A stretch of 64,000 nt of DNA, taken from positions 71,870-135,869 of the forward strand of contig JAUVFR010000001.1 in assembly GCA_030594205.1 (NCBI GenBank), in the 5' to 3' direction. The notes under the pieces are model-generated. The model made no database searches. It was not told the origin of the DNA and saw nothing but the letters and a program-made list of their open reading frames with translations. A program made the translations under genes and the position numbers. Origin of the DNA: Methanobacteriota archaeon (lineage in GTDB: Archaea > Thermoplasmatota > Thermoplasmata > RBG-16-68-12 > JAJISG01). Shown here piece by piece: positions 11,127 through 50,818 of the stretch (position 1 is its first letter; every line of letters starts with the position of its first letter).

Positions 11127-11831
11127 TTACACCGCTGTCGCCGACGGTCGCCAGATGCGCGCTTGGATTTGGCCGGTCCGGATCTTCTCGTAGAAGGGGC
11201 AGTCGGGCCCAACGGGGCAGACAAGGCAGCGGGGGAGCCGGGCGGTGCACGTCTCGCGACCGAACCGGATGAGGGCCAGGTGCGCCTCTCGGCGCTGCTC
11301 CGGGGGAATGCGAGCCTTCCACGCCTCCGTGATGTCCTCGTAGCGCCGGCCCGGATCGATCTCCCACCGTTGGGCGATTCGCCAGATGTGCGTATCCACC
11401 GGCATGGTGGGGTAGTCCCCAACCATGGCGAGGACGACATCGGCTGTCTTGGGTCCGATGCCATTGAGCGCCATCAGCGCCGCCCGAGCCTGTTCCAGGG
11501 GGGGCCGAATGAGTCGGAGGAGATCGCCCTGGTACCGATCGAGGAGATGCTGGGCAAGCGCCTTCAGCCACTTTGCCTTGGCGGTGTAGAGACCGGCGGG
11601 ACGGAGTGCCCGTTCGAGATTCTCCACGCCGGTGGCCGCCACCCGCTCGGGCGTGATCCCGACGGAGTCCCGGAGGTTCTGGAGGGCCCTCCGTTCGTTC
11701 TGGACCGTGGTGTTCTGGGAGATGACTACGGAAACGAGAACCTCGAAGGGGTCCCTCCTTTGCGTCCAGTCCTGGGCGGGATACCTCCGAAGCACCGTTG
11801 AAAGAGCGCGGCGTGAGGTCTTCTCGTCCAT
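11127..11831 (-). CDS. nth: Endonuclease III (HhH-GPD DNA glycosylase/AP lyase with 4Fe-4S loop)
   Basis: The HhH-GPD region ([13 protein letters not shown]) and a C-x6-C-x2-C-x5-C cluster ([17 protein letters not shown]) are present. Confidence 0.88.
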
Positions 11832-12783: not shown

Positions 12784-13278
12784 ATGAGGTATTCCGAGCA
12801 GCTTGAGAACGCGTCGGGGCTCGCGGAGATTTTCGAACTCGTCAAACGGGTCGTCCAAGACAACCTGGGACGGATTCGTGCGGGCCTGATGCTTGGGCTG
12901 GCGGACCTGGGAAATCACCCTCGCGGTTTCATCGGGGGGTTCCACGCCGTGGGGAGCAACGTCATTGTGATGAACAAGGTCCCCCTGCTTCGGATCCAGG
13001 ACACAAACCAGGATTTGTACAAGCCCTACGCCTTCAACGTTCTCCTCCACGAATACCTGCACACCCTGGGCTACCTGGACGAAGGGACGGTCCGGCCCAC
13101 CGTCGCTCGGCTGAGCGAGGCGGCCTTCGGCCCCGATCACCTCGTCACCCAAATCGGCCGGGATTACGCCGCCTTCTTCCCCAACCTGGTCTACCCCGAG
13201 GCCGCCTGGCAGCCGCGGGAGTTTTCCATGGAGCTTGTGTCGGACTTCGACAAGGGTAGCGCCAGCTACATCGGCTGA
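12784..13278 (+). CDS. Hypothetical protein with HExxH zinc-metallopeptidase-like motif (LLHEYLHTLGYLDEG)
   Basis: A 164-aa ORF with coding-like composition and a single HExxH...E motif. No cysteines are present, so it is not an archaemetzincin. Confidence 0.5.
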   Translation: MRYSEQLENASGLAEIFELVKRVVQDNLGRIRAGLMLGLADLGNHPRGFIGGFHAVGSNVIVMNKVPLLRIQDTNQDLYKPYAFNVLLHEYLHTLGYLDEGTVRPTVARLSEAAFGPDHLVTQIGRDYAAFFPNLVYPEAAWQPREFSMELVSDFDKGSASYIG

Positions 13279-13335: not shown

Positions 13336-14028
13336 ATGGCCGAATTGCACCCCCGGGCCTACCTGGCTGAATTCATCGCCGTTCTGGCATTGGTCTTTGC
13401 GGGCGGCGGTTCCATCATCGCGAACGAGCTTCTGGGGCCGCAGGGCTTTGGGCTCCTGGGCATTGCCTTCGCCCACGGCATTGTGCTTGCGGTGATGGTC
13501 ACCGCGACGATGCACATCTCAGGGGGCCACGTGAACCCGGCCGTGACCATCGGCCAGCTGATCGCGCGGAAAATCGATGCGACCAACGCCCTCCTGTACA
13601 TCGGGGCCCAACTCCTTGGGGGCGTGGTGGGGGGCGTCCTCCTGCTCTATGCCTTCCCCTCCTCGGCCTGGGACCTCAACGGCATTAAGCTCGGCACGCC
13701 GCAGCTGGGGGCCATCGCCGACATACCCACCGCCATCGGGGTGGAGGCCATCCTGACCTTCTTCCTGGTTTTCACTGTGTTCGCCACGGGCGTCGACAAG
13801 CGGGGAACGGGCCAGATCGCAGGGTTCGCCATCGGCTTCGTCCTCATCTTCGACATCTTGGTCGGAGGGCCCCTCACCGGGGCCGCCATGAATCCGGCCC
13901 GCGCTTTCGGGACGGCAGCGGCCATCGTCCACTTCCCCCTCGAGCACATCGTCTACTGGATTGGCCCCATCATCGGGGGAATTGTAGCGGGCCTGGTGTA
14001 CGGGTACGGACTGCTCAAGAAGGAGTAA
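13336..14028 (+). CDS. aqpM: Aquaporin/MIP-family channel (AqpM-like)
   Basis: Two NPA motifs (GGHVNPAVT and AAMNPARAF) and six TM helices. The probable start is MAELHPRAY. Confidence 0.88.
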   Translation: MAELHPRAYLAEFIAVLALVFAGGGSIIANELLGPQGFGLLGIAFAHGIVLAVMVTATMHISGGHVNPAVTIGQLIARKIDATNALLYIGAQLLGGVVGGVLLLYAFPSSAWDLNGIKLGTPQLGAIADIPTAIGVEAILTFFLVFTVFATGVDKRGTGQIAGFAIGFVLIFDILVGGPLTGAAMNPARAFGTAAAIVHFPLEHIVYWIGPIIGGIVAGLVYGYGLLKKE

Positions 14029-14059
14029 GCACTCGCTCCGAGTGCGCCCCGAAAGTGGG

Positions 14060-14356
14060 CTACACGAGGCGAAAGAGAACCTTTCCCACGATGTGTTCGA
14101 CGGGGACCGGCCCGAAGTCCCGGCTGTCCGTGCTCAGCCGTCGGTTGTCCCCCACGATGGAGATGTGGGATCCATCGACCCGCGAGATTCGTTTCACCAA
14201 GAACCGGTTCTCGAAGGGATGGCGGAGAACGACGAGGTCCCCCACCGAAGGGCATCCCCAGAGATAGGGGAGCGCGCTCGCGATGACTTGGTCGCCCTCC
14301 CGCAGGGTGGGCTCCATGCTTCGATTCCTGATTCGGAAGCGGCGTAAGGGCGACAT
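14060..14356 (-). CDS. sodX: Ni-SOD maturation peptidase SodX (S26 signal-peptidase-like)
   Basis: RNRSMEPTLREGD carries the catalytic Ser and VKRISRVDGS the Lys, in an S24/S26 fold. It lies immediately downstream of sodN. The start is uncertain because the track ORF extends to 14461 and overlaps sodN. Confidence 0.6.
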   Translation of the reverse strand: MSPLRRFRIRNRSMEPTLREGDQVIASALPYLWGCPSVGDLVVLRHPFENRFLVKRISRVDGSHISIVGDNRRLSTDSRDFGPVPVEHIVGKVLFRLV

Positions 14357-14376
14357 CACAGGATCACGACCGACCC

Positions 14377-14898
14377 TCACCCCGCGGTCGGAACCACCAT
14401 CTCCCGCTCGGTAGGGTAGTGGGACCCCGTGCGGACGGGCGTCACGTTCTTCGTCTTCCAAAAGATTTCCGCGATTCGGTTCACCGTGTCTAAGAGGTCC
14501 TCCCCTACCTGCAGGTCAGTGGTCTGCTTGGACTGGGAGCCGAGCATCATCACCTTCCAGACCAGATCGTGGAGATCCGGGAAAGCCTCCGCATGATCGG
14601 GTTTGAAGTAATCTCCCCAGAGGATTCGAACCTCATGTTTGCAGATTTCGGCGTGTTTCTCCTTGATCTCGGTGTACCGGGCAATGCCGTGGGCGTACTG
14701 ATCCATCTCCGTCGGCGTCCCCCTGCCCTTCTCCGTCAGCTCCCCAATGAGGGTGTCCATCCGGATGACCGTATGGGCGGCCAGCTGGGCATAGTGCGGG
14801 TCGTAGATGCCGCACGGGATGTCACAGTGCGCATAGGCGGTTTCCTCGGGCAAGATCCTCTCGAGGATACGCGTCACGATTTTCCTTCTAGTTTCCAT
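14377..14898 (-). CDS. sodN: Nickel-containing superoxide dismutase (NiSOD) precursor
   Basis: The Ni-hook HCDIPCGIYDP is preceded by a 23-aa propeptide (METRRKIVTRILERILPEETAYA). The ATG at 14898 is preceded by GGAGGAGG with 8-nt spacing. The 480-aa track ORF is an artefactual extension. Confidence 0.85.
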   Translation of the reverse strand: METRRKIVTRILERILPEETAYAHCDIPCGIYDPHYAQLAAHTVIRMDTLIGELTEKGRGTPTEMDQYAHGIARYTEIKEKHAEICKHEVRILWGDYFKPDHAEAFPDLHDLVWKVMMLGSQSKQTTDLQVGEDLLDTVNRIAEIFWKTKNVTPVRTGSHYPTEREMVVPTAG

Positions 14899-14905
14899 TT
14901 CCGAA

Positions 14906-14913
14906 CCTCCTCC
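14906..14913 (-). promoter_or_regulatory. Shine-Dalgarno-like GGAGGAGG upstream of sodN
   Basis: The plus-strand sequence cctcctcc lies 8 nt upstream of the sodN ATG on the minus strand. Confidence 0.4.
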
Positions 14914-15057
14914 GTCCGTCGTCCAAGTCTCGGAAGACGAACCGCGTCTGAGGTACCGCGCGAAGGCGCACGGCCTTCTAAAGTCTTGGTGCGGGCGTGG
15001 AATCCGCTGAAGAACGTTTGAAATAGCCAACTCTCGTAGTCCGCCGAGGGGCTCGGG

Positions 15058-16581
15058 TTGCAGATTCAGGCCACGCACGGACGCATCGAAGAGGCCGCGG
15101 ATTCGGCGATTGTGGTAAACCTGTTTCAGGGCGTGAATGCTCCGGGAGGGGCCACGGGGGCGGTGGATCGCGCCCTCGAGGGAATGATTGCAGAGCTCAT
15201 TCAGGGCGGGGATCTGAAGGGGAAATTCAAGGAGGTCGTCCTCTTTCGGACGGGAGGACGCATCCCCGCTGAGAGGGTCCTCGTCGTGGGCCTCGGGGAT
15301 CAGCTGGAGTTTGGCTTGGACCGGATCCGGGAAACTTCCGCGAGGGCGGCGACGTTCCTGCGGGAGTCCGGCGTCTCCAGCTACACAACCATCATGCATG
15401 GCACGGGAATCGGCGGGGTCGATCTGAGGGAGGCGACCGAGGCCTTGGTGGAGGGGGCCCTGCTCGGGTCCTATCGTTTCAATCGCTACAGGACGGAGCG
15501 GGACGAAGACGAGGTGGAGCTGACGTCCATGACGGTCGCGGTCAAGGATGCGGAAAATCTGGAAACCGTGCAGGAGGCGATCCAGTGGGCGCGCACCGTG
15601 TCGGAGGCCACCAACTTTGTGCGGGATCTCGTTGCCTCCCCCGCCCGAGACAAGACACCCCGGGAATTGGCCCGGGTGGCCCAGGAGGTGGCCGAGGGCG
15701 CAAGCATACAGTGCACCGTTCTTGACGAGAAGCAGGCCGAGGAGCTGAACATGGGTGGATTCCTCGGCGTCGCACGCGGGAGCAGCGAGCCCCCGCGTTT
15801 CATCATCCTGGAGTATCACGGCGGCCCGAAGGGGGAGAGCCCCATCGCCCTGGTGGGCAAGGGCATCACCTTTGACAGCGGAGGCCTCTCGCTCAAGCCC
15901 GCCAAGTCCATGGAGACGATGAAGGAGGACATGGCGGGGGCAGCTGCGGTCATCGGGGTCCTCCGGGCCGCGGCCGAACTCAAGCTCCCGGTGAACCTCG
16001 TAGGCATCGCGCCTTGCACCGAGAATCTCCCTGGGGGCCGGGCCACCAAGCCGGGTGATGTCCTAACCACGCACCTCGGCACGACCATCGAGGTCCTGAA
16101 CACGGACGCGGAGGGTCGCCTGGTCCTGTCCGACGGCCTGGGATACGCCACGACCTTCAATCCCCAGGCCATCTTCGACATGGCCACCCTTACCGGAGCT
16201 TGTATGGTCGCCCTCGGCCGGATGACCACGGGCATGATGGGGACCAGCGAAGAGCTCATGGACCGCCTCCGCCGAGCAGGAGCCAAGACGGGGGACTATG
16301 TGTGGCCCCTCCCCCTCTACGAGGAGTACGAGGAGCAGATCAAGAGCGACATCGCAGACGTGAAGAACACGGGTGGGAAGTACGCCGGCGCCATTACGGC
16401 GGCCCTCCTCCTGAAGAGGTTCGTGAAGGACGTTCCGTGGGTGCACTTGGACATCGCGGGCACGCGGAAGACAACAGGCGAGGCCGATTCCCTCCAGAAG
16501 GAGTATCTCCCTAAGGGACCCACGGGCGTCGGGGTTCGACTGCTCATCCAGGTGCTACGCGACTGGAACCAGGCGACATGA
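15058..16581 (+). CDS. pepA: Leucyl aminopeptidase (M17 family)
   Basis: Motifs VGKGITFDSGG and NTDAEGRL are M17 family signatures. The 507-aa product begins at a TTG and the exact start is uncertain. Confidence 0.88.
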   Translation: MQIQATHGRIEEAADSAIVVNLFQGVNAPGGATGAVDRALEGMIAELIQGGDLKGKFKEVVLFRTGGRIPAERVLVVGLGDQLEFGLDRIRETSARAATFLRESGVSSYTTIMHGTGIGGVDLREATEALVEGALLGSYRFNRYRTERDEDEVELTSMTVAVKDAENLETVQEAIQWARTVSEATNFVRDLVASPARDKTPRELARVAQEVAEGASIQCTVLDEKQAEELNMGGFLGVARGSSEPPRFIILEYHGGPKGESPIALVGKGITFDSGGLSLKPAKSMETMKEDMAGAAAVIGVLRAAAELKLPVNLVGIAPCTENLPGGRATKPGDVLTTHLGTTIEVLNTDAEGRLVLSDGLGYATTFNPQAIFDMATLTGACMVALGRMTTGMMGTSEELMDRLRRAGAKTGDYVWPLPLYEEYEEQIKSDIADVKNTGGKYAGAITAALLLKRFVKDVPWVHLDIAGTRKTTGEADSLQKEYLPKGPTGVGVRLLIQVLRDWNQAT

Positions 16582-17261: not shown

Positions 17262-17978
17262 TTGGGAGAGGGGATGACGGGATCCCGCGAGGCGGTCCAT
17301 CCACCGACGGCGTTGGCTTCTACCGATGCCGGACTCCAGGACGAGCTTCACACGCTTTACCGAGAACGCCAGGGCGAAATCGAGACGCGGTTGCGGGAGT
17401 TTCGAGCGATTTGGGAGGAAGGTAGCGACGAGGACCTCTTCGCTGAGATGACGTTCTGCCTCTGTGCCGTTCAGACAGCGGCGCGCGTGAGCGATCGGAC
17501 CACACACACCCTCCGCGAGCGAGGGCTCCTCCTCGGAGGTTCGCGAAGGCGCGTCCGGGATGTCCTTCGAGGGGGCTACGTCCGTTTTCACGAGAACAAG
17601 TCCCGGTGGATCGTGGAGGCCCGAAGGCGTTTCATGGAACCCAGCCCGACCCTGCGCCAAGACCTGGAAAGACGAGCCCACTCCCCGCCGGCCCTCCGGA
17701 ACTGGCTCGAGGACGAGGTCCTGGGACTCGGACCGAAGGAGGCATCCCACTTCCTGCGGAACATCGGTCTCGGCGAAGATCTGGCCATCCTCGACCGCCA
17801 CATCCTCACAAACCTGAAGGACCTCGGCGTCCTCGACGCCCTGCCCCCGAGCCTCACGCGAACTCGCTACCTCGAGATTGAAGGGCGTCTCCAGGCGTTC
17901 TGCGAACGGACCGGCATCCCCGTGGGACACATGGATCTCCTCCTCTGGGCCAAGGCGACGGGTTTTGTCTTCAAGTGA
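17262..17978 (+). CDS. ogg: N-glycosylase/DNA lyase, archaeal Ogg2-type (HhH-GPD superfamily)
   Basis: Motifs FCLCAVQTAA, HhH (KEASHFLRNIGLGEDLAILDRHI) and the catalytic Asp context are present. Confidence 0.65.
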   Translation: MGEGMTGSREAVHPPTALASTDAGLQDELHTLYRERQGEIETRLREFRAIWEEGSDEDLFAEMTFCLCAVQTAARVSDRTTHTLRERGLLLGGSRRRVRDVLRGGYVRFHENKSRWIVEARRRFMEPSPTLRQDLERRAHSPPALRNWLEDEVLGLGPKEASHFLRNIGLGEDLAILDRHILTNLKDLGVLDALPPSLTRTRYLEIEGRLQAFCERTGIPVGHMDLLLWAKATGFVFK

Positions 17979-21595: not shown

Positions 21596-22750
21596 ATGAG
21601 CATGAGCAAAATTCACATTGCGATAGCTGGTGTGGGTAACTGTGCGAGTTCCCTTCTCCAAGGAATCGAATTCTACAGAACCTCAGGCGACGATCCCATC
21701 GGCCTGATGCACGACGAGGTGCGGGGCTATCGCGTGGAGGACTTGGAAGTGGTGGCCGCCTTCGACGTGGATGCTCGCAAGGTCGGCCGGGACGTGTCAG
21801 AGGCCATCTTTGCTCCTCCAAATTGCACCAAGGTCTTCTATCCCGAAGTCCCCGATTCCGGCGTAACGGTGAACATGGGTCCGGTCCTCGACGGCGTGGG
21901 CGAGCATATGGCGGATTACCCCGAGGACCGCACGTTCAAGGTCGCCGATGCCCCACCGGTGGATGTGGCCGAGACACTCCAGGAAAGCGGGGCCGAGGTC
22001 CTACTCAACTACCTTCCGGTGGGAAGCGAGAAGGCGACACGATACTACGCGGAGAGCGCGCTGGAGGCCGGATGCGCCCTCGTCAACTGCATCCCCGTGT
22101 TCATCGCCTCCGATCCCCACTGGGCCCGCCGCTTTGAACGCGCGGGGGTCCCCGTCGTGGGCGACGACATCAAGTCTCAGGTTGGGGCCACCGTCATTCA
22201 CAGGATCCTGGCGAAGCTCTTCGTGGATCGTGGGGCGAGCATCGACAGGACGTATCAGCTCAACACAGGTGGCAACACCGATTTCTTGAATATGCTCGAC
22301 CGGGCGAGGCTGACGTCGAAGAAGGTCTCGAAGACGGAGGCCGTGCAGGCGCAACTGCCCGTCCCTCTGGACGCCGAGAACATCCACATCGGGCCCTCCG
22401 ACTACGTCCCGTGGCAGAAGGACAACAAGCTGTGCTTCCTGCGGGTCGAGGGGAGGATATGGGGGAACATCCCCGTCGACCTGGAGCTCCGCCTCTCGGT
22501 GGAGGACAGCCCCAACAGCGCCGGGAGCGCCATCGACGCCATTCGCTGTGCGAAGGTCGGACTCGATGAGGGCCTGGGAGGTCCTCTCGAGGCGGTGTCA
22601 GCGTATACCATGAAACACCCTCCGATCCAGATGCCCGAGGAGGAGGCTCGGAGGCGGGTGGAGGAGTTTGTCGCGGGTCAGATAGCGGGGGTGACGGATG
22701 AGGGCGTTGGTCTTAGCAGCTGGGAGAGGGAGGAGGTTATCGAACGGTGA
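21596..22750 (+). CDS. myo-Inositol-1-phosphate synthase (archaeal MIPS)
   Basis: The N-terminal IAIAGVGNCASSLLQGI Rossmann motif, NTGGNTDF and a length of about 384 aa are typical of archaeal/bacterial MIPS. Confidence 0.82.
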   Translation: MSMSKIHIAIAGVGNCASSLLQGIEFYRTSGDDPIGLMHDEVRGYRVEDLEVVAAFDVDARKVGRDVSEAIFAPPNCTKVFYPEVPDSGVTVNMGPVLDGVGEHMADYPEDRTFKVADAPPVDVAETLQESGAEVLLNYLPVGSEKATRYYAESALEAGCALVNCIPVFIASDPHWARRFERAGVPVVGDDIKSQVGATVIHRILAKLFVDRGASIDRTYQLNTGGNTDFLNMLDRARLTSKKVSKTEAVQAQLPVPLDAENIHIGPSDYVPWQKDNKLCFLRVEGRIWGNIPVDLELRLSVEDSPNSAGSAIDAIRCAKVGLDEGLGGPLEAVSAYTMKHPPIQMPEEEARRRVEEFVAGQIAGVTDEGVGLSSWEREEVIER

Positions 22751-23996
22751 CGGCCCGAAGGCCCTGGTCCGTTTGCTCGGCCTCCCGCTCATCACCCGAG
22801 TAATCCTCACCGCCAGGCAGGCAGGGATCCGGGACTTCACCGTCGTCGTCGGCTACCAGGCCCAGGTCGTGATGGAGTCCCTCGGCGACGGCTCCTCCCT
22901 GGGCATCAAGCTCGCCTATGTCCAAAACGAGGCGTGGGAGAGGGGAAACGGTCTCTCCGTTCTGAAGGGGGCACAACAGTTCGGCGAGGAGCGCTTCCTC
23001 CTGTTGATGGCCGACCACGTCCTCAAGCCCGAGATTGTGGCCAGGCTTTCCCGATCGAGAGTCCAGGGGGGCGTTGCCATGGCGGTCGACACCTCCCCCG
23101 GGGAGGAAAAGGTCGCGGAGGCAACCAAGGTATTCGTGGAGAATCGACGCGTCCGACGCGTGGGAAAGGGCCTCGCCACGTTCACCGGAGTCGACATGGG
23201 GGTCATGGCGGGCGGAAAGGAGTTGGCCCGGGCCTTGCAGGCGGCGATCGATGAGGGCCGGGAGGAGCTCGGCGACGCCCTTGACCAGCTGGCCCGCGAT
23301 GGAAAGGTGCGGGCCGTGGAGTTCAAGGGCCCCCTCTGGGCGGACCTGGATACGCCACGGGATTTCCGGAGGGCCAGGAAGGACATGCTGCGTGACCTCG
23401 GCAAGTCCGAGGACGGCCCCGTGGCGAGGTACCTCAACCGTCCTCTCTCCACGCGGCTTTCCGCCCTGCTCGTGAAGACCCGTCTGACGCCGAACCAGAT
23501 GAGCATCTTTGTCCTCGGCCTCGCGTTCCTGGCCTCCTACTTCCTCTTCCTGGGAATCTATCCGTTCCTCCTCGTGGGGGGTATCCTGATCCAGCTCTCG
23601 TCCATCTTGGACGGAAGCGACGGGGAGATTGCCCGGCTGAAGTTCGTATCGACCCAAAAGGGGGGGTGGCTCGACTCCGTGGCAGACCGCTATGCGGATT
23701 TCATCTTCATTTCCGCGCTCGCCTACGGCCAGTGGGCTCTCGCCCCGGACCTCCGTTGGGGGTTCCTTGCCATCTTTGCCATCGTTGGATCCTTCGGCGT
23801 CAGTTACACTTCCGCCGCCTATTTCGCCTCCTTCAAGAGGGGCCATCCCCTCGGCCTCCAGCTCCCGGCGAAGCGGGACAGTCGACTGCTCATTTTGGCA
23901 GCCGCCGCGGTGATAGGGCTCCCCCTTTACGGCCTCCTTGCCGTCGGCGTGCTGGGCAACGCGGAGGTTATCAGAAGGCTCTTGACCTGGCGCTAG
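22698..23996 (+). CDS. Bifunctional CTP:inositol-1-phosphate cytidylyltransferase / di-myo-inositol-phosphate-phosphate synthase (IPCT/DIPPS)
   Basis: An N-terminal nucleotidyltransferase fold (LVLAAGRGRRL) is fused to a CDP-alcohol phosphatidyltransferase membrane domain carrying DGSDGEIARL...GGWLDSVADRYAD. It lies adjacent to MIPS. Confidence 0.82.
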   Translation: MRALVLAAGRGRRLSNGDGPKALVRLLGLPLITRVILTARQAGIRDFTVVVGYQAQVVMESLGDGSSLGIKLAYVQNEAWERGNGLSVLKGAQQFGEERFLLLMADHVLKPEIVARLSRSRVQGGVAMAVDTSPGEEKVAEATKVFVENRRVRRVGKGLATFTGVDMGVMAGGKELARALQAAIDEGREELGDALDQLARDGKVRAVEFKGPLWADLDTPRDFRRARKDMLRDLGKSEDGPVARYLNRPLSTRLSALLVKTRLTPNQMSIFVLGLAFLASYFLFLGIYPFLLVGGILIQLSSILDGSDGEIARLKFVSTQKGGWLDSVADRYADFIFISALAYGQWALAPDLRWGFLAIFAIVGSFGVSYTSAAYFASFKRGHPLGLQLPAKRDSRLLILAAAAVIGLPLYGLLAVGVLGNAEVIRRLLTWR

Positions 23997-24655: not shown

Positions 24656-24737
24656 TTCTGTACTAGTCTCTTTGGAAATCGATGCCGGGGTGTGTGGCTA
24701 TGACTGGTTCTAAGTAGGCTAAGGGAGTCTGGCCTAC

Positions 24738-24810
24738 GGGCTCGTAGGGTAGTGGACTATCCTTCCGGCCTTCGGAGCCGGGGACCTGGGTTCGAATCCC
24801 AGCGGGCCCG
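24738..24810 (+). tRNA. tRNA-Arg (anticodon TCG)
   Basis: Manual fold. The acceptor stem is GGGCTCG/CGGGCCC (one T-G wobble). The anticodon stem CCGGC/GCCGG has loop CTTCGGA, giving anticodon TCG. The T-arm is CTGGG-TTCGAAT-CCCAG with discriminator G. No encoded CCA. Confidence 0.85.
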
Positions 24811-24815
24811 TCCTA
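24795..24815. repeat. attL-like direct repeat (tRNA-Arg 3' end, AATCCCAGCGGGCCCGTCCTA)
   Basis: A 21-nt sequence identical to 28256..28276. Confidence 0.8.
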
Positions 24816-24838
24816 GACCAAAAACACTGCGCGCAGGA

Positions 24839-25717
24839 CTACTTTGGAATGAGAGAGGCCAGCATCTGATCTGCATGGTTGACTGCAAGAGAAACGTGGC
24901 CTTCCCCCGGAAACACCCGTAGGTGACTATTCCTGATCATTTCATTCATCAACTTCACCACCCCGAAGGCTGGGTCTTTGTCCCCATGCCAGAAGGTGAT
25001 TCTCTCCCCGCAGGTAATGCCCGATATGTCAAATCCCCAACGACCGGCGAAAGCACGCGCATCATGGAGGGCTGCGTTGATTCCGTGGGAGAATCCCTCC
25101 TTGGAAATCCTGATGTAGAAATCGAAAAACCTGTCGTCGTTGAAAAGCTCAAAGTCGGCAACCGGCATGCGATGCCGATTCCTGTTGATTTGTGACCGAA
25201 ACTCCTCCGGGTCCTCTATGAGCGACATTTGCTTCTTCAATCCCATTCCATAGATCCACGGTAATCTTGAGGCCAGAAACAATTGGGTTCGGAGCGATCG
25301 GTCCATTGTCTTGGTGCCGAGACCTGGAGGGCCAACCGTGCTGATGACACCGTATTGGTAGACCAGATCCCCAATTTCGTGGGCGCAGGCAAGGACGTGA
25401 GGCGCGCCGCCGGATATTCCAAGGAGGGAGAATTCATCGACATCAAGCGTTTCCGTCAGCTCCTTGATGTCCCGGGCCCAGCCCAATAGTGACCGTCTGG
25501 TGAAGGTGGAGTTCCCATACCCCGGGCGATCGGGAACAATCAAACGTAATCCGAGCTTTCTCGCAACTCGGGAGAACATCTCACCCTCAAGCCTGCAATT
25601 TCCGTGGCCATGCTGGTGTATCACTGGAAAACCCTGAAAATCGCCGAACTCCGCGTATGATACGTTCCGGCCGTCTCCGAGGGTAGTCGAACGATCCAAC
25701 ATCTCCGCGGCGGTCAT
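24839..25717 (-). CDS. Alpha/beta-hydrolase fold protein (proline iminopeptidase/esterase-like)
   Basis: HGHGNCRL...PGYGNS and the nucleophile elbow GISGG are present in a 292-aa product. Confidence 0.8.
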   Translation of the reverse strand: MTAAEMLDRSTTLGDGRNVSYAEFGDFQGFPVIHQHGHGNCRLEGEMFSRVARKLGLRLIVPDRPGYGNSTFTRRSLLGWARDIKELTETLDVDEFSLLGISGGAPHVLACAHEIGDLVYQYGVISTVGPPGLGTKTMDRSLRTQLFLASRLPWIYGMGLKKQMSLIEDPEEFRSQINRNRHRMPVADFELFNDDRFFDFYIRISKEGFSHGINAALHDARAFAGRWGFDISGITCGERITFWHGDKDPAFGVVKLMNEMIRNSHLRVFPGEGHVSLAVNHADQMLASLIPK

Positions 25718-25722
25718 ACCGC

Positions 25723-25959
25723 TCAGAGACCCTGTTTCTCAAGATCGCGGTTGATGTTCTCCATCCTCTCGGGAGTCAAATCCCAGTATCTCCAGAAGAC
25801 CAGGGCGGCAACGAGAAGGAATGCGGCGGGGATTAATCCAAAGTGGCTCATTATTCCCCATTTTGCGATCTCACTCTGGGTCGCAAGTGTCGCATCAAAT
25901 CTCACGAGATTATGCACGATTGCCGGCACCGTACCGCCTTGGCCCAGTCTTGCCGTCAT
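25723..25959 (-). CDS. Small membrane protein (1 TM), hypothetical
   Basis: A 78-aa ORF tightly coupled (5-nt gap) upstream of the hydrolase on the same strand, with the hydrophobic stretch FGLIPAAFLLVAALVFW. Confidence 0.4.
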   Translation of the reverse strand: MTARLGQGGTVPAIVHNLVRFDATLATQSEIAKWGIMSHFGLIPAAFLLVAALVFWRYWDLTPERMENINRDLEKQGL

Positions 25960-26103
25960 TTGGCTTTTCCTTCATTTTCTCACTCATACACCATCAACCT
26001 CTACTAAGCATGGCTATTGGCTGAGCATGCTAGATAGGATACTTATAAGCTTAATCGGCAACGAGACGGGCTTTCGACCTGGGTTATTTCAGAATGCGTT
26101 CGA

Positions 26104-27678
26104 CTACGCTATGAGGTTTCCCCGATTCAAAAGGTTAAGAGGGTCGATGCTCAGCTTCATAGACCGGACGGACCTCAATCCCTTCTCTCCGTACTGAGTA
26201 TACAATGCCGGTTTTCCTCTTAGGGTCTTCTTGCCCAATCCATGCTCGGCAGCGATTGACCCACCCAGAGAAACGACCTTCTCTGCGATCTCCGCCAACC
26301 GGGCCTTCGCAGTATCGGCCTGATGATCATTTCTGGGTAGGAGCGTGAGGTGGACGTGGGAGTCCCCCGCGTGGGCAAAGAAGACGTACCCGAGAGCATC
26401 CAGTGATTGGAGGCCGTCACGGACAAGAGATTCGAATTCGGCTCCAACTTCGAGCAAATGGTAAAACAGTTCACTGAAGCTCGTTTGAGGAACGGAGTAG
26501 TCGGTAGCCACGAGGGACTGATCATGAGAGCGGGTGAGGGAAAGAACGTGCTCGGGCACGCTGTGCCTTAGTTCTTTGTGATGTTCGATTTCAGCGTGGG
26601 TAAGGGCGACCGAAGTATCGAGGATTTCGAGTTCATCGAACCTGTTTTTCCACCATTCCAATGCTGGATAGAGTTCGGAACTGGAGCGTACATCTTGTTC
26701 CAACATTATGATAGAATGGGCAAGAGGCGGGATCCGCGGATCTACCTGCTTGACAATTCTGGTGGCTCGGTCATCAAGAAACTCCACTGACATTGGGACT
26801 GGGAAACTGTTTGTGCCGCGTTGTTCCTGTGCAACTCGGATGACGTCAAATGCTTGGTCTAAGTTCTTGCACATGACAAAGATGCTCGCTATCTCTTCTG
26901 GGGGTCGTGTCAAACGCAGGGTGACTTCGGAGATGACACCGAATATCCCGTTCGTGCCAATGAAAAGATCAATGGGATGACTGTTGTCCGTGATGACCGG
27001 TCCTGCAACATTCTTGGTGACTTGAGGCAATTCATAATCGGGGCGGGGGATCCTAATCTCCTCGCCGTGAGCAATCAGGATAATGTAGTCCTCTTCGACG
27101 TAATGAGGCCGGGCCTGGTCCCTCCGTAACACGATGCAGTGACCCGGGGGGATGATCACCCTAAGCCCCTGAACCCAGGGCCTGGTAGGGCCGAATTTGA
27201 AGGTTCTTGCTCCAGAGGCATTTGTGGCCACGTTACCCCCGATGAATGAACCCCTCTCAGTGGAATCGGGCGGATAAAACCAGTTGTGTTCCCGTGCAAA
27301 GTTCTGCACTGCTTTGAGGGTCATGGCAACTGGCAGGGTCAGATAGGCCAATTCTTCGTTTACCTCCTCGAAACGGAGATGGTAGGTGATGTCGGTGTCG
27401 GGATCGGTCCACTCACGTGAGGGTGCGGCGGCAATCTCCCTCATCTTGTCCGTCGCTATGATCCATCCCCCGAGTGGAACTCTGCCGCCCGATAGTCCGG
27501 TGCCCCCGCCGGAAACTGTAATTGGGATGCTTTGGGAATAGGCCTGAACGATGATTTCCAAAAGCTCGGTCTCTGTCCTCGGAAAAAGTATCTTGTCCGC
27601 GGTACCTCTGACCAGGCCGGATTCATCATTGAGGTAGCTCGAATATTCGGTGGATACCTCTTGATATTGCTCGATCAA
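26104..27678 (-). CDS. FAD-linked oxidase (PCMH-type FAD-binding; GlcD/D-lactate dehydrogenase/AGPS family)
   Basis: The FAD-binding motif SGGGTGLSGG is present, with C-terminal HAGDSHVHL and AEHGLGKK, in a 524-aa product. Confidence 0.8.
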   Translation of the reverse strand: MIEQYQEVSTEYSSYLNDESGLVRGTADKILFPRTETELLEIIVQAYSQSIPITVSGGGTGLSGGRVPLGGWIIATDKMREIAAAPSREWTDPDTDITYHLRFEEVNEELAYLTLPVAMTLKAVQNFAREHNWFYPPDSTERGSFIGGNVATNASGARTFKFGPTRPWVQGLRVIIPPGHCIVLRRDQARPHYVEEDYIILIAHGEEIRIPRPDYELPQVTKNVAGPVITDNSHPIDLFIGTNGIFGVISEVTLRLTRPPEEIASIFVMCKNLDQAFDVIRVAQEQRGTNSFPVPMSVEFLDDRATRIVKQVDPRIPPLAHSIIMLEQDVRSSSELYPALEWWKNRFDELEILDTSVALTHAEIEHHKELRHSVPEHVLSLTRSHDQSLVATDYSVPQTSFSELFYHLLEVGAEFESLVRDGLQSLDALGYVFFAHAGDSHVHLTLLPRNDHQADTAKARLAEIAEKVVSLGGSIAAEHGLGKKTLRGKPALYTQYGEKGLRSVRSMKLSIDPLNLLNRGNLIA

Positions 27679-27974
27679 AGTCGGTCACCTGAGGTGTCAT
27701 TCAAATCAGCTGAGGCCGGTTCCACGAGTTCTAGCCGGTTCCCGGTAGGGTCCCGGAAACGGGCCAATCGACCGCGGCCGCTGGCCACACCATAGGCCTC
27801 GATGCCGTGAGGAAAGGTGACACCCGCGGCGGGGAGCCGCTCCATGACGGACTCCAGGTTTGTCACCCGAAACCCCATGTCTCCGCTCGGACCCTTACCG
27901 GGCTCCTCGCAGAAGCCCCAAAGCGCCTCGACCCGCTCCTGGAAGTTCTCCAGGGCCTTGAAGGGGATGTTCAC
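27675..27974 (-). CDS. VOC/glyoxalase-family protein, short and probably N-terminally truncated
   Basis: RFRDPTGNRLELVE and FRVTNLESVMERLPAAGVTF match the C-terminal half of a glyoxalase/bleomycin-resistance fold. An in-frame TGA lies 13 codons upstream of the GTG start, so a full domain cannot be encoded. Confidence 0.45.
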   Translation of the reverse strand: MNIPFKALENFQERVEALWGFCEEPGKGPSGDMGFRVTNLESVMERLPAAGVTFPHGIEAYGVASGRGRLARFRDPTGNRLELVEPASADLNDTSGDRL

Positions 27975-28255
27975 TCCATCGGCGTGGCGGGCCCGCTGCG
28001 ACTCCCGTTCGGATCATTCATTTCCGCCGTCTACTATCCCCTGATATGGACAGGAATATCAGCGACTTAGCCTTTCCGATGGGACAAGAACCTCACGCCT
28101 TTTTCGGTGGGACAACATAGAAGGCGATCCCAGGATTTGGGTAAGCCAGAGCAGGCCGAAGCGCGCAGAAAGGGAATCAACCCATTCTATCCGATTCACT
28201 CCCCCGGCAATGCGCCGTCTTAACTCAGTGAGCGGTTCGGATACTGGGGTATCCC

Positions 28256-28276
28256 AATCCCAGCGGGCCCGTCCTA
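28256..28276. repeat. attR-like direct repeat (copy of tRNA-Arg 3' end)
   Basis: AATCCCAGCGGGCCCGTCCTA is identical to 24795..24815. The preceding CTGGGGTATCCC resembles a degenerate T-arm. Confidence 0.8.
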
Positions 28277-28304
28277 TCGGGAGCATACCTTTTTCTGGAG
28301 AACC

Positions 28305-29950
28305 GTGACTTCGACGCGGGGGAGTGGCACGAACCCAGGTACGGAGTTTTCTGATCTAGCCGAAACGATTCTCGACGGCGTCTTCGAGAGCGACCCTCGA
28401 CGGGCGGTGCAGCTGGGATTTCACGAGTACGACGGGCGGCTACCTGATGTGGAGCCCGGCCGCATTAAGGAACGTATCACACGCACTCGGGATCACCTCA
28501 CGCGACTCACGGCCCTTGGCGACCTATCGCCGGATTCGGACGCCGAGCGTGAAATGCTCGCCTCCATCCTCGAGGTCACCCTGTTTCAGCTTGAGGATCA
28601 GGCGATTCCGTTCCGGAATCCTGGTGTCTATGCCTTCATGTTGAGCCTGGTCCCTACCTGAGTCGTGAGTACGCCCCCCTCCCCGAGCGGTTCGAGGCGG
28701 TGCTGACCCATCTCAAGAACGTTCCTCGCTTTCTGGACCAAGCCGAGGCCAACTTGGAGGAGGCGCTCCCCATGCCCTTCGTGGAGTTGGGGGTCATCGC
28801 CTCGCAAGGCATCGTCACGAGCTTCCGCCGGAACATCCCGGAGGAGGCGGCGAAGGTGTCGCAGGAACTCCGGGACCGGGTCATGACACAGACCGAGAAG
28901 ACCATCGAACGAATCGAGGCCTTCCAGGGACGCCTGGAGAAGGAGTGGCGTCCCCGGGCGAATCAGGATTTCCCCCTCGGGCCCGACCGGTACCGGCGCA
29001 TGTTGTGGGCCCAGGAGCGAATCGACCTCCCTCTGGACGAGCTGGAGGCCATGGGCCAGGCGAATCTGGAGGAGAACAAGGAAGCCTTCCTGGAGACGGC
29101 GAAGCAGATCGACCCCAAGAAGACGCCGCAGGAGGTCATGGCCCTCGCCGAGGAGGACCACAGCACGGCAGATGCCCTCCTCCCCGAGACGGAGGAGATG
29201 CTCGAAGAACTCCGACAGTTCCTCCTTGACAAGGACATCATCACGATTCCCTCGGAGGTGCGCCCCATCGTGACCGAGACGCCCTACCACTTCCGCGCCT
29301 GGGCGACGGCGGCCATGAATTCCCCGGGCCCTTTCGAGGTGCAGGGAGACGAGGCTTACTACTACGTCACCCCCGTCGAGCCGGATTGGTCCGAAGAGAA
29401 GGCGGAGGAGTGGCTGCGATACATGAATCGACCGAGCCTCAAGAACATCAGCGTCCATGAATGCTATCCGGGGCACTACGTTCACATGCTCCATCGGAAG
29501 CTCCTCCCCTCGAAGATTGGCCGCATCTACACAGGCTACGCCTTCACGAAGGGGTGGGCCCACTACACGGAACAGATGGCCCTCGAAGAAGGGCTGGGGG
29601 AGGGGGATCCCCGCCTCCGCTTGCTGCAACTGCAGGATGCGCTCCTCCGCAACTGCCGGTATCTCTGTTCCATCGGCCTGCACACAAAAGGCAAGACCCT
29701 CGACGAGGCCACGGCGTTCATCATGGAGAACGCCTTCATGGAGCAGGGCCCCGCGGCGCGGGAGGCCTTCCGAGGAACCTTCGACCCCGGCTACCTCAAT
29801 TACACCCTGGGCAAGCTCTTCATCCTCCAGGTCCGGGAGAAGTTCTTTGCGGCCCACCCGGAGGCGACGCTGCGGGAGTTCCACGACAAGTTGCTGGCTG
29901 GGGGCGCCCCGCCGATTGGCCTCCTTGAGAAGCTGGTTTTGGCGGAATAG
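28305..29950 (+). pseudogene. DUF885-family protein (HExxH-containing, bacterial-type) interrupted by a frameshift near 28600-28700
   Basis: ORF 28305..28661 matches the DUF885 N-terminus (LGFHEYDGRLPDV...). ORF 28700..29950 carries the remainder, including HECYPGHY. The upstream frame-2 translation (…PYLSREYAPLPERFEAV) is continuous with the second ORF. A C7 homopolymer lies nearby. Confidence 0.7.
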
Positions 29951-30034: not shown

Positions 30035-31213
30035 TTGGACGGTCCTGTGATCCTGGGCGCCGTCCGAACGCCCGTGGGCAAGTACGGACGGGCCCTCCGC
30101 GACGTTCCCGCCACCCGCCTAGGCGCCCTCGCCATCGAGGAGGTCGTGCGGCGGACTCGTGTCGATCCGACGGACGTGGAGGAGGTCATCATGGGCAACG
30201 TTATCCAGGCGGGTCTAGGCCAGGCACCCGCCCGTCAGGCGTCTCTCCTCGCCGGCCTCCCGGAGATGGTGGGTGCCGTCACGATCAACAAGGTCTGCGC
30301 ATCGGGCCTCAAAGCCGTGACCCTGGCTGCCGATACCATCCGGACGGGGGACCAAGACCTCGTCGTCGCAGGGGGCATGGAAAACATGAGCGCGGCCCCG
30401 TATCTGCTGCCCAAGGCCCGTTGGGGCTACCGGCACGGCAACGCAGAGCTAGTGGACGCGATGGTCCACGACGGACTGTGGGATGTGTACAACAACTTCC
30501 ACATGGGCATCACCGGCGAAGTCGTGGCGGAGAAGTACGGGATTACGCGAGAGGAGCAGGACGCCTTCGCCTACGAGAGCCACATGCGGGCGCTGAGCGC
30601 GATCAAGCAAGGCCGATTCGAGGCGGAGATCGTCCCGGTTCCGCTCGAGAGACCGGAGGGAGAAGCCCTCTTCGAGGTGGACGAGGGGGTCCGACCGGAC
30701 ACCTCCCTCGAAAAACTCGCCCGCCTGCCTGCTGTCTTTCAGGAGGGGGGCTCGGTCACCGCGGGGAACTCCTCCCAGCTGAGCGACGGGGGCGCCGCCG
30801 TCGTGGTCGCCTCGGCGGATCGGGCTGACGAGATGGGCGCCAAGCCCCTGGCCCGCATCCTCGGGTACGCCACAGGCGGCGTCTCCCCGAGGAACGTCAT
30901 GGAAGCCCCCATTCCCACGGTCAACGCGCTGCTCCAGAAGCTGGAGCTGACCATCCACGACTTCGACCTCTTCGAGCACAACGAGGCCTACGCCGCCGCC
31001 TCCCTTGCCGTCGCCCGACAGCTCGAGATTCCCATGGACAGGCTGAACGTGAACGGCGGAGCCGTCGCCCTCGGTCACCCCTTGGGATGCACGGGGGCCC
31101 GCATCCTGACGACCCTCCTCCACGCCATGCAGGATCGCGGTGCCCGACGCGGTCTCGTGACCCTCTGTCTTGGTGGCGGGAACGCCGTGGCCGTCGCCGT
31201 CGAGACGACCTAG
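30035..31213 (+). CDS. Acetyl-CoA C-acetyltransferase (thiolase II)
   Basis: The catalytic Cys context (NKVCASGLKA) is present, with C-terminal GHPLGCTGARIL and CLGGGNAVAVAVE. Confidence 0.92.
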   Translation: MDGPVILGAVRTPVGKYGRALRDVPATRLGALAIEEVVRRTRVDPTDVEEVIMGNVIQAGLGQAPARQASLLAGLPEMVGAVTINKVCASGLKAVTLAADTIRTGDQDLVVAGGMENMSAAPYLLPKARWGYRHGNAELVDAMVHDGLWDVYNNFHMGITGEVVAEKYGITREEQDAFAYESHMRALSAIKQGRFEAEIVPVPLERPEGEALFEVDEGVRPDTSLEKLARLPAVFQEGGSVTAGNSSQLSDGGAAVVVASADRADEMGAKPLARILGYATGGVSPRNVMEAPIPTVNALLQKLELTIHDFDLFEHNEAYAAASLAVARQLEIPMDRLNVNGGAVALGHPLGCTGARILTTLLHAMQDRGARRGLVTLCLGGGNAVAVAVETT

Positions 31214-31281
31214 CGCCCCCGAACCACCCGGAAAGCCTTTTAGGTTCGAGCCTGTTTCTTCATGGTTTGACCGGTTCCCCC

Positions 31282-50787: not shown

Positions 50788-50818
50788 ACCATTCGGGGGC
50801 GGCCTTATCAACTTTGGG

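Follow-up and report, generated by a model that had tools for sequence, protein, structure and literature searches.

A probable nickel superoxide dismutase operon, sodN–sodX, in a Thermoplasmatota archaeon

Introduction

Does the archaeal DNA analyzed here, a stretch of 64 000 nucleotides (64 kb; hereafter the window), encode a nickel superoxide dismutase (NiSOD) together with the peptidase that matures it, and if so, is the gene pair a recent bacterial import? The initial annotation had described a horizontally acquired module in a domain of life that uses Fe/Mn-SOD or SOR. The latter premise no longer holds: reports of archaeal NiSOD go back to 2021 (Sutherland et al. 2021, bioRxiv 10.1101/2021.01.12.426412 / Geobiology) and include a 2023 study of marine group II (PMC10783094). 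The accessible parts of these two reports place NiSOD in MAGs of Thermoplasmatota, DPANN, Thaumarchaeota and Asgard archaea and ascribe this distribution to inter-domain transfer. PGAP already names such proteins, and a member of the same 90% cluster as the SodN of the window carries such a name. Since archaeal copies are already annotated and published, sodN–sodX is a typical representative of a family already known, and the finding matters little beyond bookkeeping. The archaeal gene pair as such is known; only mildly new is the long-form subclass to which this enzyme belongs, which is without a solved structure. Modest value is added by the evidence that in this lineage the pair is old, vertically inherited and apparently expressed from archaeal-type signals.

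We conclude, with a probability of roughly 0.88, that the locus is a two-gene sodN–sodX operon of a Thermoplasmatota archaeon for a cytoplasmic nickel superoxide dismutase, a pair that is bacterial in type, old and vertically inherited. Gene identities, motifs, gene order and host, as well as a predicted fold, are direct results of the analysis.

Results and discussion

The sodN gene encodes a NiSOD precursor

The features of sodN are as follows:

14377..14898, minus strand: sodN coding sequence, from ORF and translation; pre-NiSOD of 173 aa plus stop
14830..14898, minus strand: propeptide METRRKIVTRILERILPEETAYA, codons 1–23, with cleavage site A-Y-A↓H, by direct reading
14797..14829, minus strand: Ni-hook HCDIPCGIYDP, residues 24–34, directly after A-Y-A

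The start codon ATG occupies 14898–14896 and the stop codon TGA 14379–14377. The translated protein scores 148.9 bits against Pfam PF09055 (E 1.4e-43, cut-off 25) and 162.3 bits against TIGR02753 sodN (cut-off 90), and a sequence search of the PDB yields Streptomyces NiSOD at 38–40% identity (E 6e-25). The hook aligns one to one with residues 1–11 of the Streptomyces enzyme (1q0d/1t6u), with precursor His24, Cys25, Cys29 and Tyr32 corresponding to mature His1, Cys2, Cys6 and Tyr9. In an alignment of 30 homologues the complete hook HCDIPCGIYDP is invariant, including the nickel ligands His1, Cys2 and Cys6 as well as Asp3, Pro5 and Tyr9, and so is the WGDYF segment; the identical 11-mer was found in 72 of 80 related loci (the best 80 among the matches listed). 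With a clean translation and both family models passed, the hook following a 23-aa leader that ends in Ala, as first annotated, is confirmed. A frameshift or a motif lost on realignment, which had been named as possible grounds for refutation, was not found: the translation is clean and the HMM alignment retains the motif.

The start sites at 14898 (sodN) and 14356 (sodX) are fixed by homologues and family models. An ORF of 480 aa (14377–15819) was rejected as sodN, being an upstream read-through without stop codon.

The leader of Streptomyces NiSOD has 14 aa, and the observation that the leader is longer here (23 aa) stands; across the SodN clade leaders measure 18–27 aa. The cleavage site is well conserved: of the best 80 related loci among the matches listed, 79 have Ala at position −1, and 77 have either Ala (54) or Val (23) at position −3. 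A leader ending in (A/V)-x-A fits the type I signal-peptidase rule and represents the type of site that is cut by S26 enzymes.

SodX and the proposed maturation of the precursor

The gene that follows sodN bears these features:

14060..14356, minus strand: sodX coding sequence, from ORF and HMMs; soluble S26 Ser/Lys peptidase of 98 aa
14318–14320, minus strand: codon of catalytic Ser13
14192–14194, minus strand: codon of catalytic Lys55

SodX matches TIGR02754, ‘nickel-type SOD maturation protease’ (69.3 bits, cut-off 63.25, model positions 2–89 of 90), and PF10502 Peptidase_S26 (67.2 bits). Together with the motifs SMEPTL and VKRI these matches uphold the earlier assignment of the next gene 3′ as the S26 Ser/Lys peptidase SodX. 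The S26 signature, the Ser/Lys dyad and box E are common to SodX and the type I signal peptidases SpsB of S. aureus (4wvh) and LepB of E. coli (1b12). Ser13 (RSMEPTL) falls on Ser36 of SpsB, the residue replaced by Ala in the inactive mutant 4wvg, Lys55 (VKRI) pairs with the lysine of SpsB VKRV, and box E (GDNRxxSxDSR) is present and aligned. In the related contigs L003 and L005 the gene is called with 98 or 99 aa. A 133-aa version of sodX with a TTG start was rejected; here, too, the additional sequence is an upstream read-through without stop codon.

The model of bacterial signal peptidase I, TIGR02227, gives 71.1 bits, marginally more than the 69.3 bits on TIGR02754, so that sequence alone does not separate SodX from signal peptidase I. 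Read this way, the downstream gene would encode a signal peptidase for general secretion, or else some unrelated S24/S26 protein, and the sodN product would be matured otherwise or never. We regard this as highly improbable. In contrast to SpsB, SodX has only 98 aa, is soluble and lacks both the membrane anchor (no hydrophobic segment; maximal Kyte-Doolittle 19-mer score 1.23) and the middle segment of ∼50 residues, and it passes the equivalog cut-off of TIGR02754 over nearly the whole model. A SodX homologue occurs in 75 of the 80 related loci (again the best 80 listed), 48 times directly 3′ of sodN on the same strand, and in both domains sodX mostly adjoins sodN at these loci. The (A/V)-x-A end of the SodN leader, a site type cut by S26 enzymes, argues in the same direction. 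The archaeal (ER-type) signal-peptidase model TIGR02228 yields only 19.7 bits, below its cut-off of 51.85, and SodX is therefore not a signal peptidase of the host type. Unlike the bacterial type I signal peptidases, it presumably acts on a single cytoplasmic protein.

The same gene pairing, also for a cytoplasmic enzyme, is present in the cyanobacteria Prochlorococcus/Synechococcus, and SodX is described to activate NiSOD by cleavage of the preprotein (PMC8346466). The accessible parts of Sutherland et al. 2021 and PMC10783094 contain no mention (0 in each) of sodX.

By analogy with the characterized bacterial systems, cleavage, nickel binding and SOD activity can be expected for the protein encoded here. 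The 173-aa precursor would be translated from sodN, and SodX, as a small soluble Ser13/Lys55 peptidase, would cut it after Ala23 (A-Y-A↓H), leaving His24 as the free N-terminus. The nickel hook would then consist of the N-terminal amine, the backbone amide of Cys2, the thiolates of Cys2 and Cys6 and the imidazole of His1. Once nickel is bound, cycling between Ni(II) and Ni(III) would dismutate superoxide as in Streptomyces NiSOD. Our literature search retrieved comparative genomics of archaeal NiSOD (Sutherland et al. 2021, PMC10783094) and no experiments or biochemistry, and for DPANN together with nickel SOD it gave nothing specific.

A long form of NiSOD

An AlphaFold model of SodN (pLDDT 88) predicts a four-helix bundle. 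In a Foldseek search of this model against the PDB the top 16 matches were all NiSOD (TM 0.87–0.91, target-normalized), with TM scores of 0.88–0.91, likewise target-normalized, for Streptomyces 1t6u/1q0d. The window protein thus resembles the Streptomyces enzyme (1q0d, 1t6u, 1t6i) in matching the same family models, in the same hook logic of HCDxPCGxYDP after a cleaved leader and in the four-helix bundle common to both. It differs from it by its 23-aa leader, a 12-aa insertion, a 22-aa tail, Ala17, His47, WGDYF in place of WSDYF and its archaeal host. One of these differences lies at the C-terminus:

14380..14445, minus strand: C-terminal tail, residues 152–173 (22 aa), past the end of Streptomyces NiSOD; predicted beta-hairpin

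The PDB chains of Streptomyces NiSOD represent the mature form of 117 aa; the alignment to them stops at residue 151 of the query, and the HMM matches stop at 150/151. Beyond this point the model places two strands (154–158 and 166–170) with a block mean pLDDT of ∼91 over residues 151–170 and 69 for the final three residues. Y161, T163 and P170 of the tail are invariant within the clade. In the PDB alignment, the 12 inserted residues fall between the first and the second helix. A C-terminal extension of about 30 aa had been noted before; it exists, but comprises 22 aa, the remainder being the helix 1–2 insertion.

SodN falls into a clade of long-form NiSODs, characterized by a ∼22-aa leader, additional residues between the first two helices and a C-terminal beta-hairpin tail that is conserved. 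Long leader and tail are common to the whole clade, including many archaea, Chloroflexota and Patescibacteria; the 80 closest species listed divide into 55 archaeal and 25 bacterial ones. For biochemistry this is a subclass that has never been solved or assayed: the PDB sequence search returned no long-form structure, all 6 matches being Streptomyces-type chains of 117–118 aa. Cyanobacterial NiSOD is shorter than the 173 aa of SodN as well (mode 157 aa, range 145–166; PMC8346466), and the nearest relatives of SodN come from archaea, Chloroflexota and Patescibacteria rather than from cyanobacteria.

The second coordination sphere is only partly kept. Asp3 and Tyr9 are retained, whereas the position of mature Glu17 is Ala in SodN (Ala 70, Ser 9 and Gly 1 among the best 80 relatives listed) and Streptomyces Arg47 aligns with His in SodN and most of its clade. 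As neither Glu17 nor Arg47 is kept, tuning of the nickel site may differ from the Streptomyces enzyme. Since both residues are hydrogen-bond partners of His1, since the hairpin tail lies outside both family models and since the PDB matches are of the Streptomyces type throughout, the clade might be suspected not to be strictly a superoxide dismutase, or to be a differently tuned one. However, the nickel ligands, Asp3, Pro5, Tyr9 and WGDYF (WSDYF in Streptomyces) are all invariant, and sodN goes closely together with SodX, as it does in proven systems. Moreover, Streptomyces NiSOD mutants at E17 and R47 keep partial activity. Residues of this second sphere tune the site and do not define the NiSOD family. 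We consider a reading of the clade as no strict, or a differently tuned, SOD very unlikely and prefer that of a nickel superoxide dismutase. It is a speculative idea, and in our view a rather doubtful one, that the long form arose in archaea and spread from them into Chloroflexota and Patescibacteria, opposite to the direction that has been published, or that the tail alters the oligomer or how the nickel site is tuned.

The locus belongs to an archaeal genome

Pfam identified RadA, PolB, S8e, L15e, aIF2-beta, DUF211, Trm5/TYW2 and archaeal PPS as archaeal markers in the window; of those listed by the initial annotation only SRP19 could not be located. A TrmY-like gene (PF04013, archaeal type) lies ∼3 kb from sodN, and together with an Ogg-HhH gene it falls within 3–4 kb. 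Metagenome contigs can be chimeric, and a bacterial sodN region could in principle have been joined to an archaeal contig by assembly or binning. This is practically negligible here. Four contigs from different assemblies or runs (L001–L004) match the window with 99.3–99.6% nucleotide identity across both sodN junctions, one of them (L003) over 20.4 kb (window 4377–24810). Agreement of four independent assemblies with it at >99% identity throughout the locus shows that the contig is not chimeric, and a chimera, which had been put forward as a potential refutation, is thereby dismissed. The two archaeal-type genes close by and the uniform GC content around the locus (61–68%) also speak against an artefact.

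Pfam scans of ∼55 ORFs of the 64-kb window gave no second SOD and likewise neither an SOR nor a nickel transporter. The window also encodes SDH, ETF, ProDH and acyl-CoA dehydrogenase, i.e. functions of respiratory or oxidative catabolism. In addition, sodN is situated among genes for repair of oxidative DNA damage, namely Ogg and an EndoIII-like gene.

A high-GC Thermoplasmatota lineage with oxidative catabolism thus carries a nickel-dependent SOD, which fits the published spread of NiSOD across domains. As far as the accessible parts of the published work show, SodN fits the ‘Chloroflexota-type’ half of the tree together with Patescibacteria and archaea, and its relatives span the same phyla as the archaeal NiSOD described there. 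Unlike the archaea of those reports, the lineage of the window is a high-GC (about 64%) member of the Thermoplasmatota, and no marine group II or Poseidoniales label appears among the named closest homologues or the species-level relatives listed.

Age and origin of the gene pair

Several observations would suit a fresh import of sodN–sodX as a bacterial island. Published NiSOD phylogenies infer several bacteria-to-archaea transfers (Sutherland et al. 2021, 10.1101/2021.01.12.426412, accessible part), the 80 closest species listed show a mixture of archaeal and bacterial sequences, SodX is of the bacterial Ser/Lys type, and the GC content of sodN (58.8%) is below that of the window (about 64%). 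For sodX it is 62.6%, against about 64% in the flanks. However, the lower GC of sodN stems from codon positions 1 and 2, i.e. from amino-acid composition: GC3 is 0.79 for sodN and 0.81 for sodX, like other genes of the window, and the codon-bias distance of sodN (0.31) equals that of other short window genes. The initial annotation had described the region as native-looking at ∼65% GC; the values measured for sodN and sodX correct this figure.

Synteny points the same way. Ogg, M17, a 164-aa protein, ProDH and MIP flank sodN–sodX in Thermoplasmata whose SodN is only 54–73% identical; these neighbors are conserved in L005 and L006 (SodN 73%) and in eight further loci (54–58%), and the scores of the neighboring proteins drop in proportion to that of SodN. 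No mobile-element gene flanks the pair, the closest ∼20 named SodN homologues are all archaeal, and relatives carry archaeal promoters (see below). Native codon usage and shared neighbors at 54–73% SodN identity lead us to reject a recent transfer, to which we give very little credence. We conclude that sodN–sodX is bacterial in type and was horizontally acquired at depth only; in this lineage it has resided for long and has been inherited vertically. The earlier view of a horizontally acquired module is thus correct with regard to the bacterial-type peptidase and the published transfers, but codon usage, synteny and archaeal promoters characterize the pair as old and native. Conserved synteny, archaeal promoters and the tail are not described in the accessible parts of Sutherland et al. 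2021 or PMC10783094.

A scan of the genome collection, which does not contain the species of the window itself, gave no species above 60% SodN identity among the matches listed; close relatives were taken from protein and contig look-ups. A neighbor-joining tree with 200 bootstraps resolves only shallow clades and leaves the backbone unresolved. It was for this reason not used for direction or timing of transfer, and age and source of the acquisition rest on synteny and literature.

Translation and transcription signals

The sequences around the two starts contain three further elements:

14357..14376, minus strand: sodN–sodX spacer gggtcggtcgtgatcctgtg, 20 nt, by direct reading
14906..14913, minus strand: Shine-Dalgarno-like GGAGGAGG, 7 nt before the sodN ATG, by direct reading
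14976..14983, minus strand: candidate archaeal TATA-like element CTTTAGAA, −85 to −78 from the sodN ATG

The spacer holds GTGATCC four bases 5′ of the sodX ATG, which is probably complementary to the 3′ end of 16S rRNA. A scan of 13900–15150 for sigma-70-like promoters gave no site, and a scan of the same interval for intrinsic terminators gave one terminator-like match, which is at chance level and falls within sodN, on the wrong strand. An Rfam scan of the window detected a single tRNA and nothing at the sodN–sodX locus. At the Shine-Dalgarno-like position of sodN, L005 carries TGGAGGTT. Comparison of the window with L005 shows that the TATA-like element is kept as CTTTAGA(A/G)GG although the surrounding spacer has diverged, and this conservation suggests that the element at 14976–14983 may function in sodN transcription. 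In syntenic Thermoplasmata relatives, a canonical archaeal BRE/TATA promoter, ACGTTTAAATA, is located ∼30 nt 5′ of sodN.

A nickel superoxide dismutase and its maturation protease

Both genes lie on the minus strand:
14377-14898, minus: sodN (ATG at 14898, TGA at 14379-14377), 173 aa
14060-14356, minus: sodX, 98 aa, beginning 20 bases past the sodN stop codon

Translation of sodN yields 23 N-terminal residues, METRRKIVTRILERILPEETAYA, followed without gap by the nickel hook HCDIPCGIYDP. A Shine-Dalgarno-like sequence (GGAGGAGG) is located seven bases 5′ of the ATG. A 480-aa version of the ORF was rejected as mere upstream read-through with no intervening stop codon; all homologues start 18–27 residues before the His. 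Profile searches, which the initial annotation had proposed as a check, placed both proteins above their cut-offs: SodN reached 148.9 bits with Pfam Sod_Ni, whose cut-off is 25, and 162.3 bits with the NCBIfam sodN model TIGR02753 (cut-off 90), and SodX reached 67.2 bits with Peptidase_S26 and 69.3 bits with TIGR02754 (nickel-type SOD maturation protease, cut-off 63.25). The initial observation of a sodN gene with a Ni-hook behind a 23-aa propeptide and a downstream SodX peptidase was thus correct, with E-values far beyond chance.

Compared with solved structures, SodN residues 24–151 align to residues 1–116 of Streptomyces NiSOD with an E-value of about 6e-25, and the hook matches position for position; every PDB sequence match is a Streptomyces-type chain of 117–118 aa. 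The AlphaFold model (mean pLDDT 88, 30 homologues as input) predicts a four-helix bundle with a helical propeptide (residues 2–15), and a Foldseek search of this model against the PDB gave significant matches to NiSOD entries only (TM 0.87–0.91 on target, 38–40% identity). The additional length had been described as a C-terminal extension of about 30 aa; extra length is indeed present, but the alignment divides it into 12 residues inserted between helices 1 and 2 and a 22-residue C-terminal tail (152–173), predicted to form a beta-hairpin (strands 154–158 and 166–170). The 30-sequence alignment shows no variation throughout the hook, in a WGDYF segment and at Y161, T163 and P170 of the tail. 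Two second-sphere residues differ from Streptomyces: Glu17 is replaced by Ala (Ala 70, Ser 9, Gly 1 in 80 relatives), and Arg47 aligns to a near-invariant His.

In SodX, which starts with MSPLRRFRIRNRSMEPTL, Ser13 falls on the catalytic serine of S. aureus SpsB, a position mutated to Ala in entry 4wvg, and Lys55 (VKRI) on the lysine of SpsB VKRV. The protein also carries the box E motif GDNRxxSxDSR; ∼50 residues between the aligned blocks of SpsB are missing. With a maximum 19-residue hydropathy of 1.23 it has no membrane anchor, and with 19.7 bits on the archaeal signal-peptidase model (cut-off 51.85) it falls far below the threshold, which assigns it to the bacterial Ser/Lys type. Public gene calls in two assemblies with near-identical loci (L001 2649-2906, L004 2229-2486) begin sodX at Met14, giving 85 aa, and two other assemblies call it at 98 or 99 aa. 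The shorter start is probably a miscall, which would delete the catalytic Ser13.

SodX is known to activate NiSOD through cleavage of the preprotein (PMC8346466). At 79 of 80 related loci Ala precedes His1, and position −3 is mostly Ala (54) or Val (23); judged from these sequences, the leader end fits a classical (A/V)-x-A signal-peptidase site, so that the substrate side would suit SodX. For cleavage, metal binding and activity we infer that the pair most likely follows the standard NiSOD mechanism: SodX would cleave the precursor after Ala23, the freed His1 N-terminus would bind nickel together with Cys2 and Cys6, and mature SodN would dismutate superoxide in the cytoplasm. A search of the accessible literature found no biochemical work on archaeal or long-form NiSODs.

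MIP and sodX are convergent, and the 31 nt between their stop codons contain a perfect inverted repeat (14029-14045, GCACTCG ctc CGAGTGC; 7-bp arms, 3-nt loop) that has no T-run behind it.

The gene pair resides in an archaeal genome

The archaeal host claimed initially was confirmed with Pfam: the window contains RadA with an HhH domain, PolB, S8e, L15e and aIF2-beta, as well as DUF211, Trm5/TYW2 and archaeal phosphopantothenate synthetase, and a gene for a TrmY-like PF04013 methyltransferase lies ∼3 kb from sodN. The aIF2-beta gene (50167-50820, minus strand, eIF-5_eIF-2B domain in Pfam) is apparently fused to a C-terminal TRAM domain. GC content is 61–68% all along the window, except for one island at 24–28.7 kb. 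A chimeric contig carrying sodN from a bacterial bin had been considered; this was excluded, as loci of four assemblies/runs (GCA_044240325.1, SRR18936876, GCA_022848745.1 and GCA_044343095.1) match the window with 99.3–99.6% nucleotide identity across both sodN-sodX junctions, one of them over 20.4 kb. The exact SodN protein is present on two contigs besides this one, and GenBank MCJ2530851.1 from the same 90% cluster is named ‘superoxide dismutase, Ni [Candidatus Thermoplasmatota archaeon]’.

The premise that archaea do without NiSOD is outdated. In Sutherland et al. (bioRxiv 10.1101/2021.01.12.426412; Geobiology 2021) an earlier statement to this effect is corrected: NiSOD is reported in 26 archaeal genomes of a one-genome-per-genus reference set, several bacteria-to-archaea transfers are inferred, and the Chloroflexota-centred half of the tree includes Patescibacteria and archaea. 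The locus therefore adds one more case to a phenomenon already on record, and NCBI's pipeline has named it already.

Long-form NiSODs occur in both domains

The protein database contains 5,226 SodN homologues at E ≤ 0.001. The best 120 of these measure 161–207 aa, most of them 168–177 aa, except for one 106-aa partial sequence; those named belong to Thermoplasmata/Thermoplasmatota, ‘Euryarchaeota’ RBG_16_68_13, Micrarchaeota, Aenigmarchaeota and Thaumarchaeota, with Parvarchaeota added from a cluster look-up. In a set of contigs with one genome per species, the 80 best matches (47–60% identity) comprise 55 archaea (Micrarchaeota, Nanoarchaeota, Aenigmatarchaeota, Thermoplasmata, Marsarchaeota, Thaumarchaeota, Woesearchaeota and one Heimdallarchaeota) and 25 bacteria (Dehalococcoidia/Chloroflexota, Patescibacteria, three Gammaproteobacteria and one Blastocatellia). 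The long leader and extra length, initially regarded as unusual, are present but not peculiar: leaders of 18–27 aa and mature lengths of 137–155 aa are found alike in archaea and bacteria, which makes them characters of the clade rather than archaeal novelties. Known cyanobacterial NiSODs measure 145–166 aa (PMC8346466). A SodX homologue accompanies sodN at 75 of the 80 loci. Its gene mostly follows sodN on the same strand; Dehalococcoidia and one Thermoplasmata group have it upstream in divergent orientation.

A neighbour-joining tree of SodN (200 bootstraps), which supports shallow groups but not the backbone and cannot date or orient acquisitions, unites the window with L003 (a near-identical locus) and the related L005 at 95%. 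Separate from these it recovers a group of soil Thermoplasmata (92%), a third group of Thermoplasmata (100%) that stands beside Dehalococcoidia (65%), and a Thermoplasmatales pair (100%). Several SodN groups thus appear within Thermoplasmatota, compatible with more than one acquisition.

Codon usage, synteny and promoters indicate long residence

The comparison of GC and codon usage suggested initially showed sodN to be native, with a GC3 of 0.79 and, at 0.31, a codon-bias distance like that of other window genes of 120–165 codons (0.32–0.37); its lower overall GC traces to the first and second codon positions. The genes follow the order TrmY-like, Ogg, SfsA, M17 aminopeptidase, sodN, sodX, MIP, 164-aa protein, ProDH, EndoIII-like, SDH, including:
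11127-11831, minus: EndoIII-like HhH-GPD glycosylase
12784-13278, plus: 164-aa protein without Pfam match, HExxH-like motif LLHEYLHTLGY
17262-17978, plus: Ogg-HhH glycosylase

The near-identical MAGs have exactly this order, and the relative L005/L006 (SodN 73% identical) keeps it except for MIP. Subsets of Ogg, M17, 164-aa protein, ProDH and MIP still surround the pair in Thermoplasmata with only 54–58% SodN identity (L012, L014, L017, L024, L027, L028, L030 and L038), and neighbour-protein scores drop in step with the SodN score.

Ahead of sodN, members of the more distant Thermoplasmata group have a canonical archaeal BRE/TATA box, ACGTTTAAATA. The element is strongly conserved ∼40 nt 5′ of sodN (consensus cACACGTTTAAATA; L012, L014, L015, L017, L021, L024, L027, L028, L030 and L038), and the TATA box ∼24–32 nt before the ATG implies a leaderless transcript. 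In contrast, the window and L005 share CTTTAGA(A/G)GG at about −80 plus a Shine-Dalgarno sequence; transcripts of this clade would have an ∼80-nt leader. No sigma-70-like site was found in the sodN-sodX region. Taken together, native codon usage, conserved synteny and archaeal promoter signals indicate, at the sequence level, that sodN-sodX is long resident and vertically descended in this lineage. The initial interpretation is supported in part: it is right on the genes and the host, and the proposed horizontal acquisition would hold only as an ancient event and not as a recent import.

The 164-aa protein gene lies within a few kb of the pair in L003–L006, L014, L017, L027, L028 and L038. Within 3 kb on either side of the SOD pair lies a gene for a base-excision repair glycosylase that targets oxidised bases (EndoIII-like and Ogg-HhH), and Ogg is still near sodN in distant Thermoplasmata relatives; a possible oxidative-damage neighbourhood is one reading, but this may be plain synteny.

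Other features of the window

24737-24813: tRNA-Arg(TCG), the only tRNA gene of the window
31087-36681, plus: Lhr-type helicase, 1864 aa from the first start codon listed
56988-57314 and 57308-57850, plus: two adjacent DUF3179 ORFs in different frames
21596-23996, plus: myo-inositol-1-phosphate synthase, then a fused nucleotidyltransferase and CDP-alcohol phosphatidyltransferase gene

Right after the tRNA begins a low-GC stretch (51–60% versus about 64%) that extends to 28700 and encodes an alpha/beta hydrolase and an FAD-linked oxidase, with weak glyoxalase and MFS matches; the alignment of the near-identical MAG contig L003 ends exactly at 24810. The region 24737-28700 has the appearance of a strain-variable island that inserted at the tRNA. 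The helicase combines a DEAD, Helicase_C, WH_Lhr and DEAD_assoc core with AlkZ-like DNA glycosylase matches in its C-terminal part. The DUF3179 ORFs cover successive profile positions (20–73 and 98–232), which suggests that the gene is frameshifted or the sequence in error. The inositol gene pair is reminiscent of IPCT/DIPPS, the pair that makes di-myo-inositol phosphate, or of inositol lipid synthesis.
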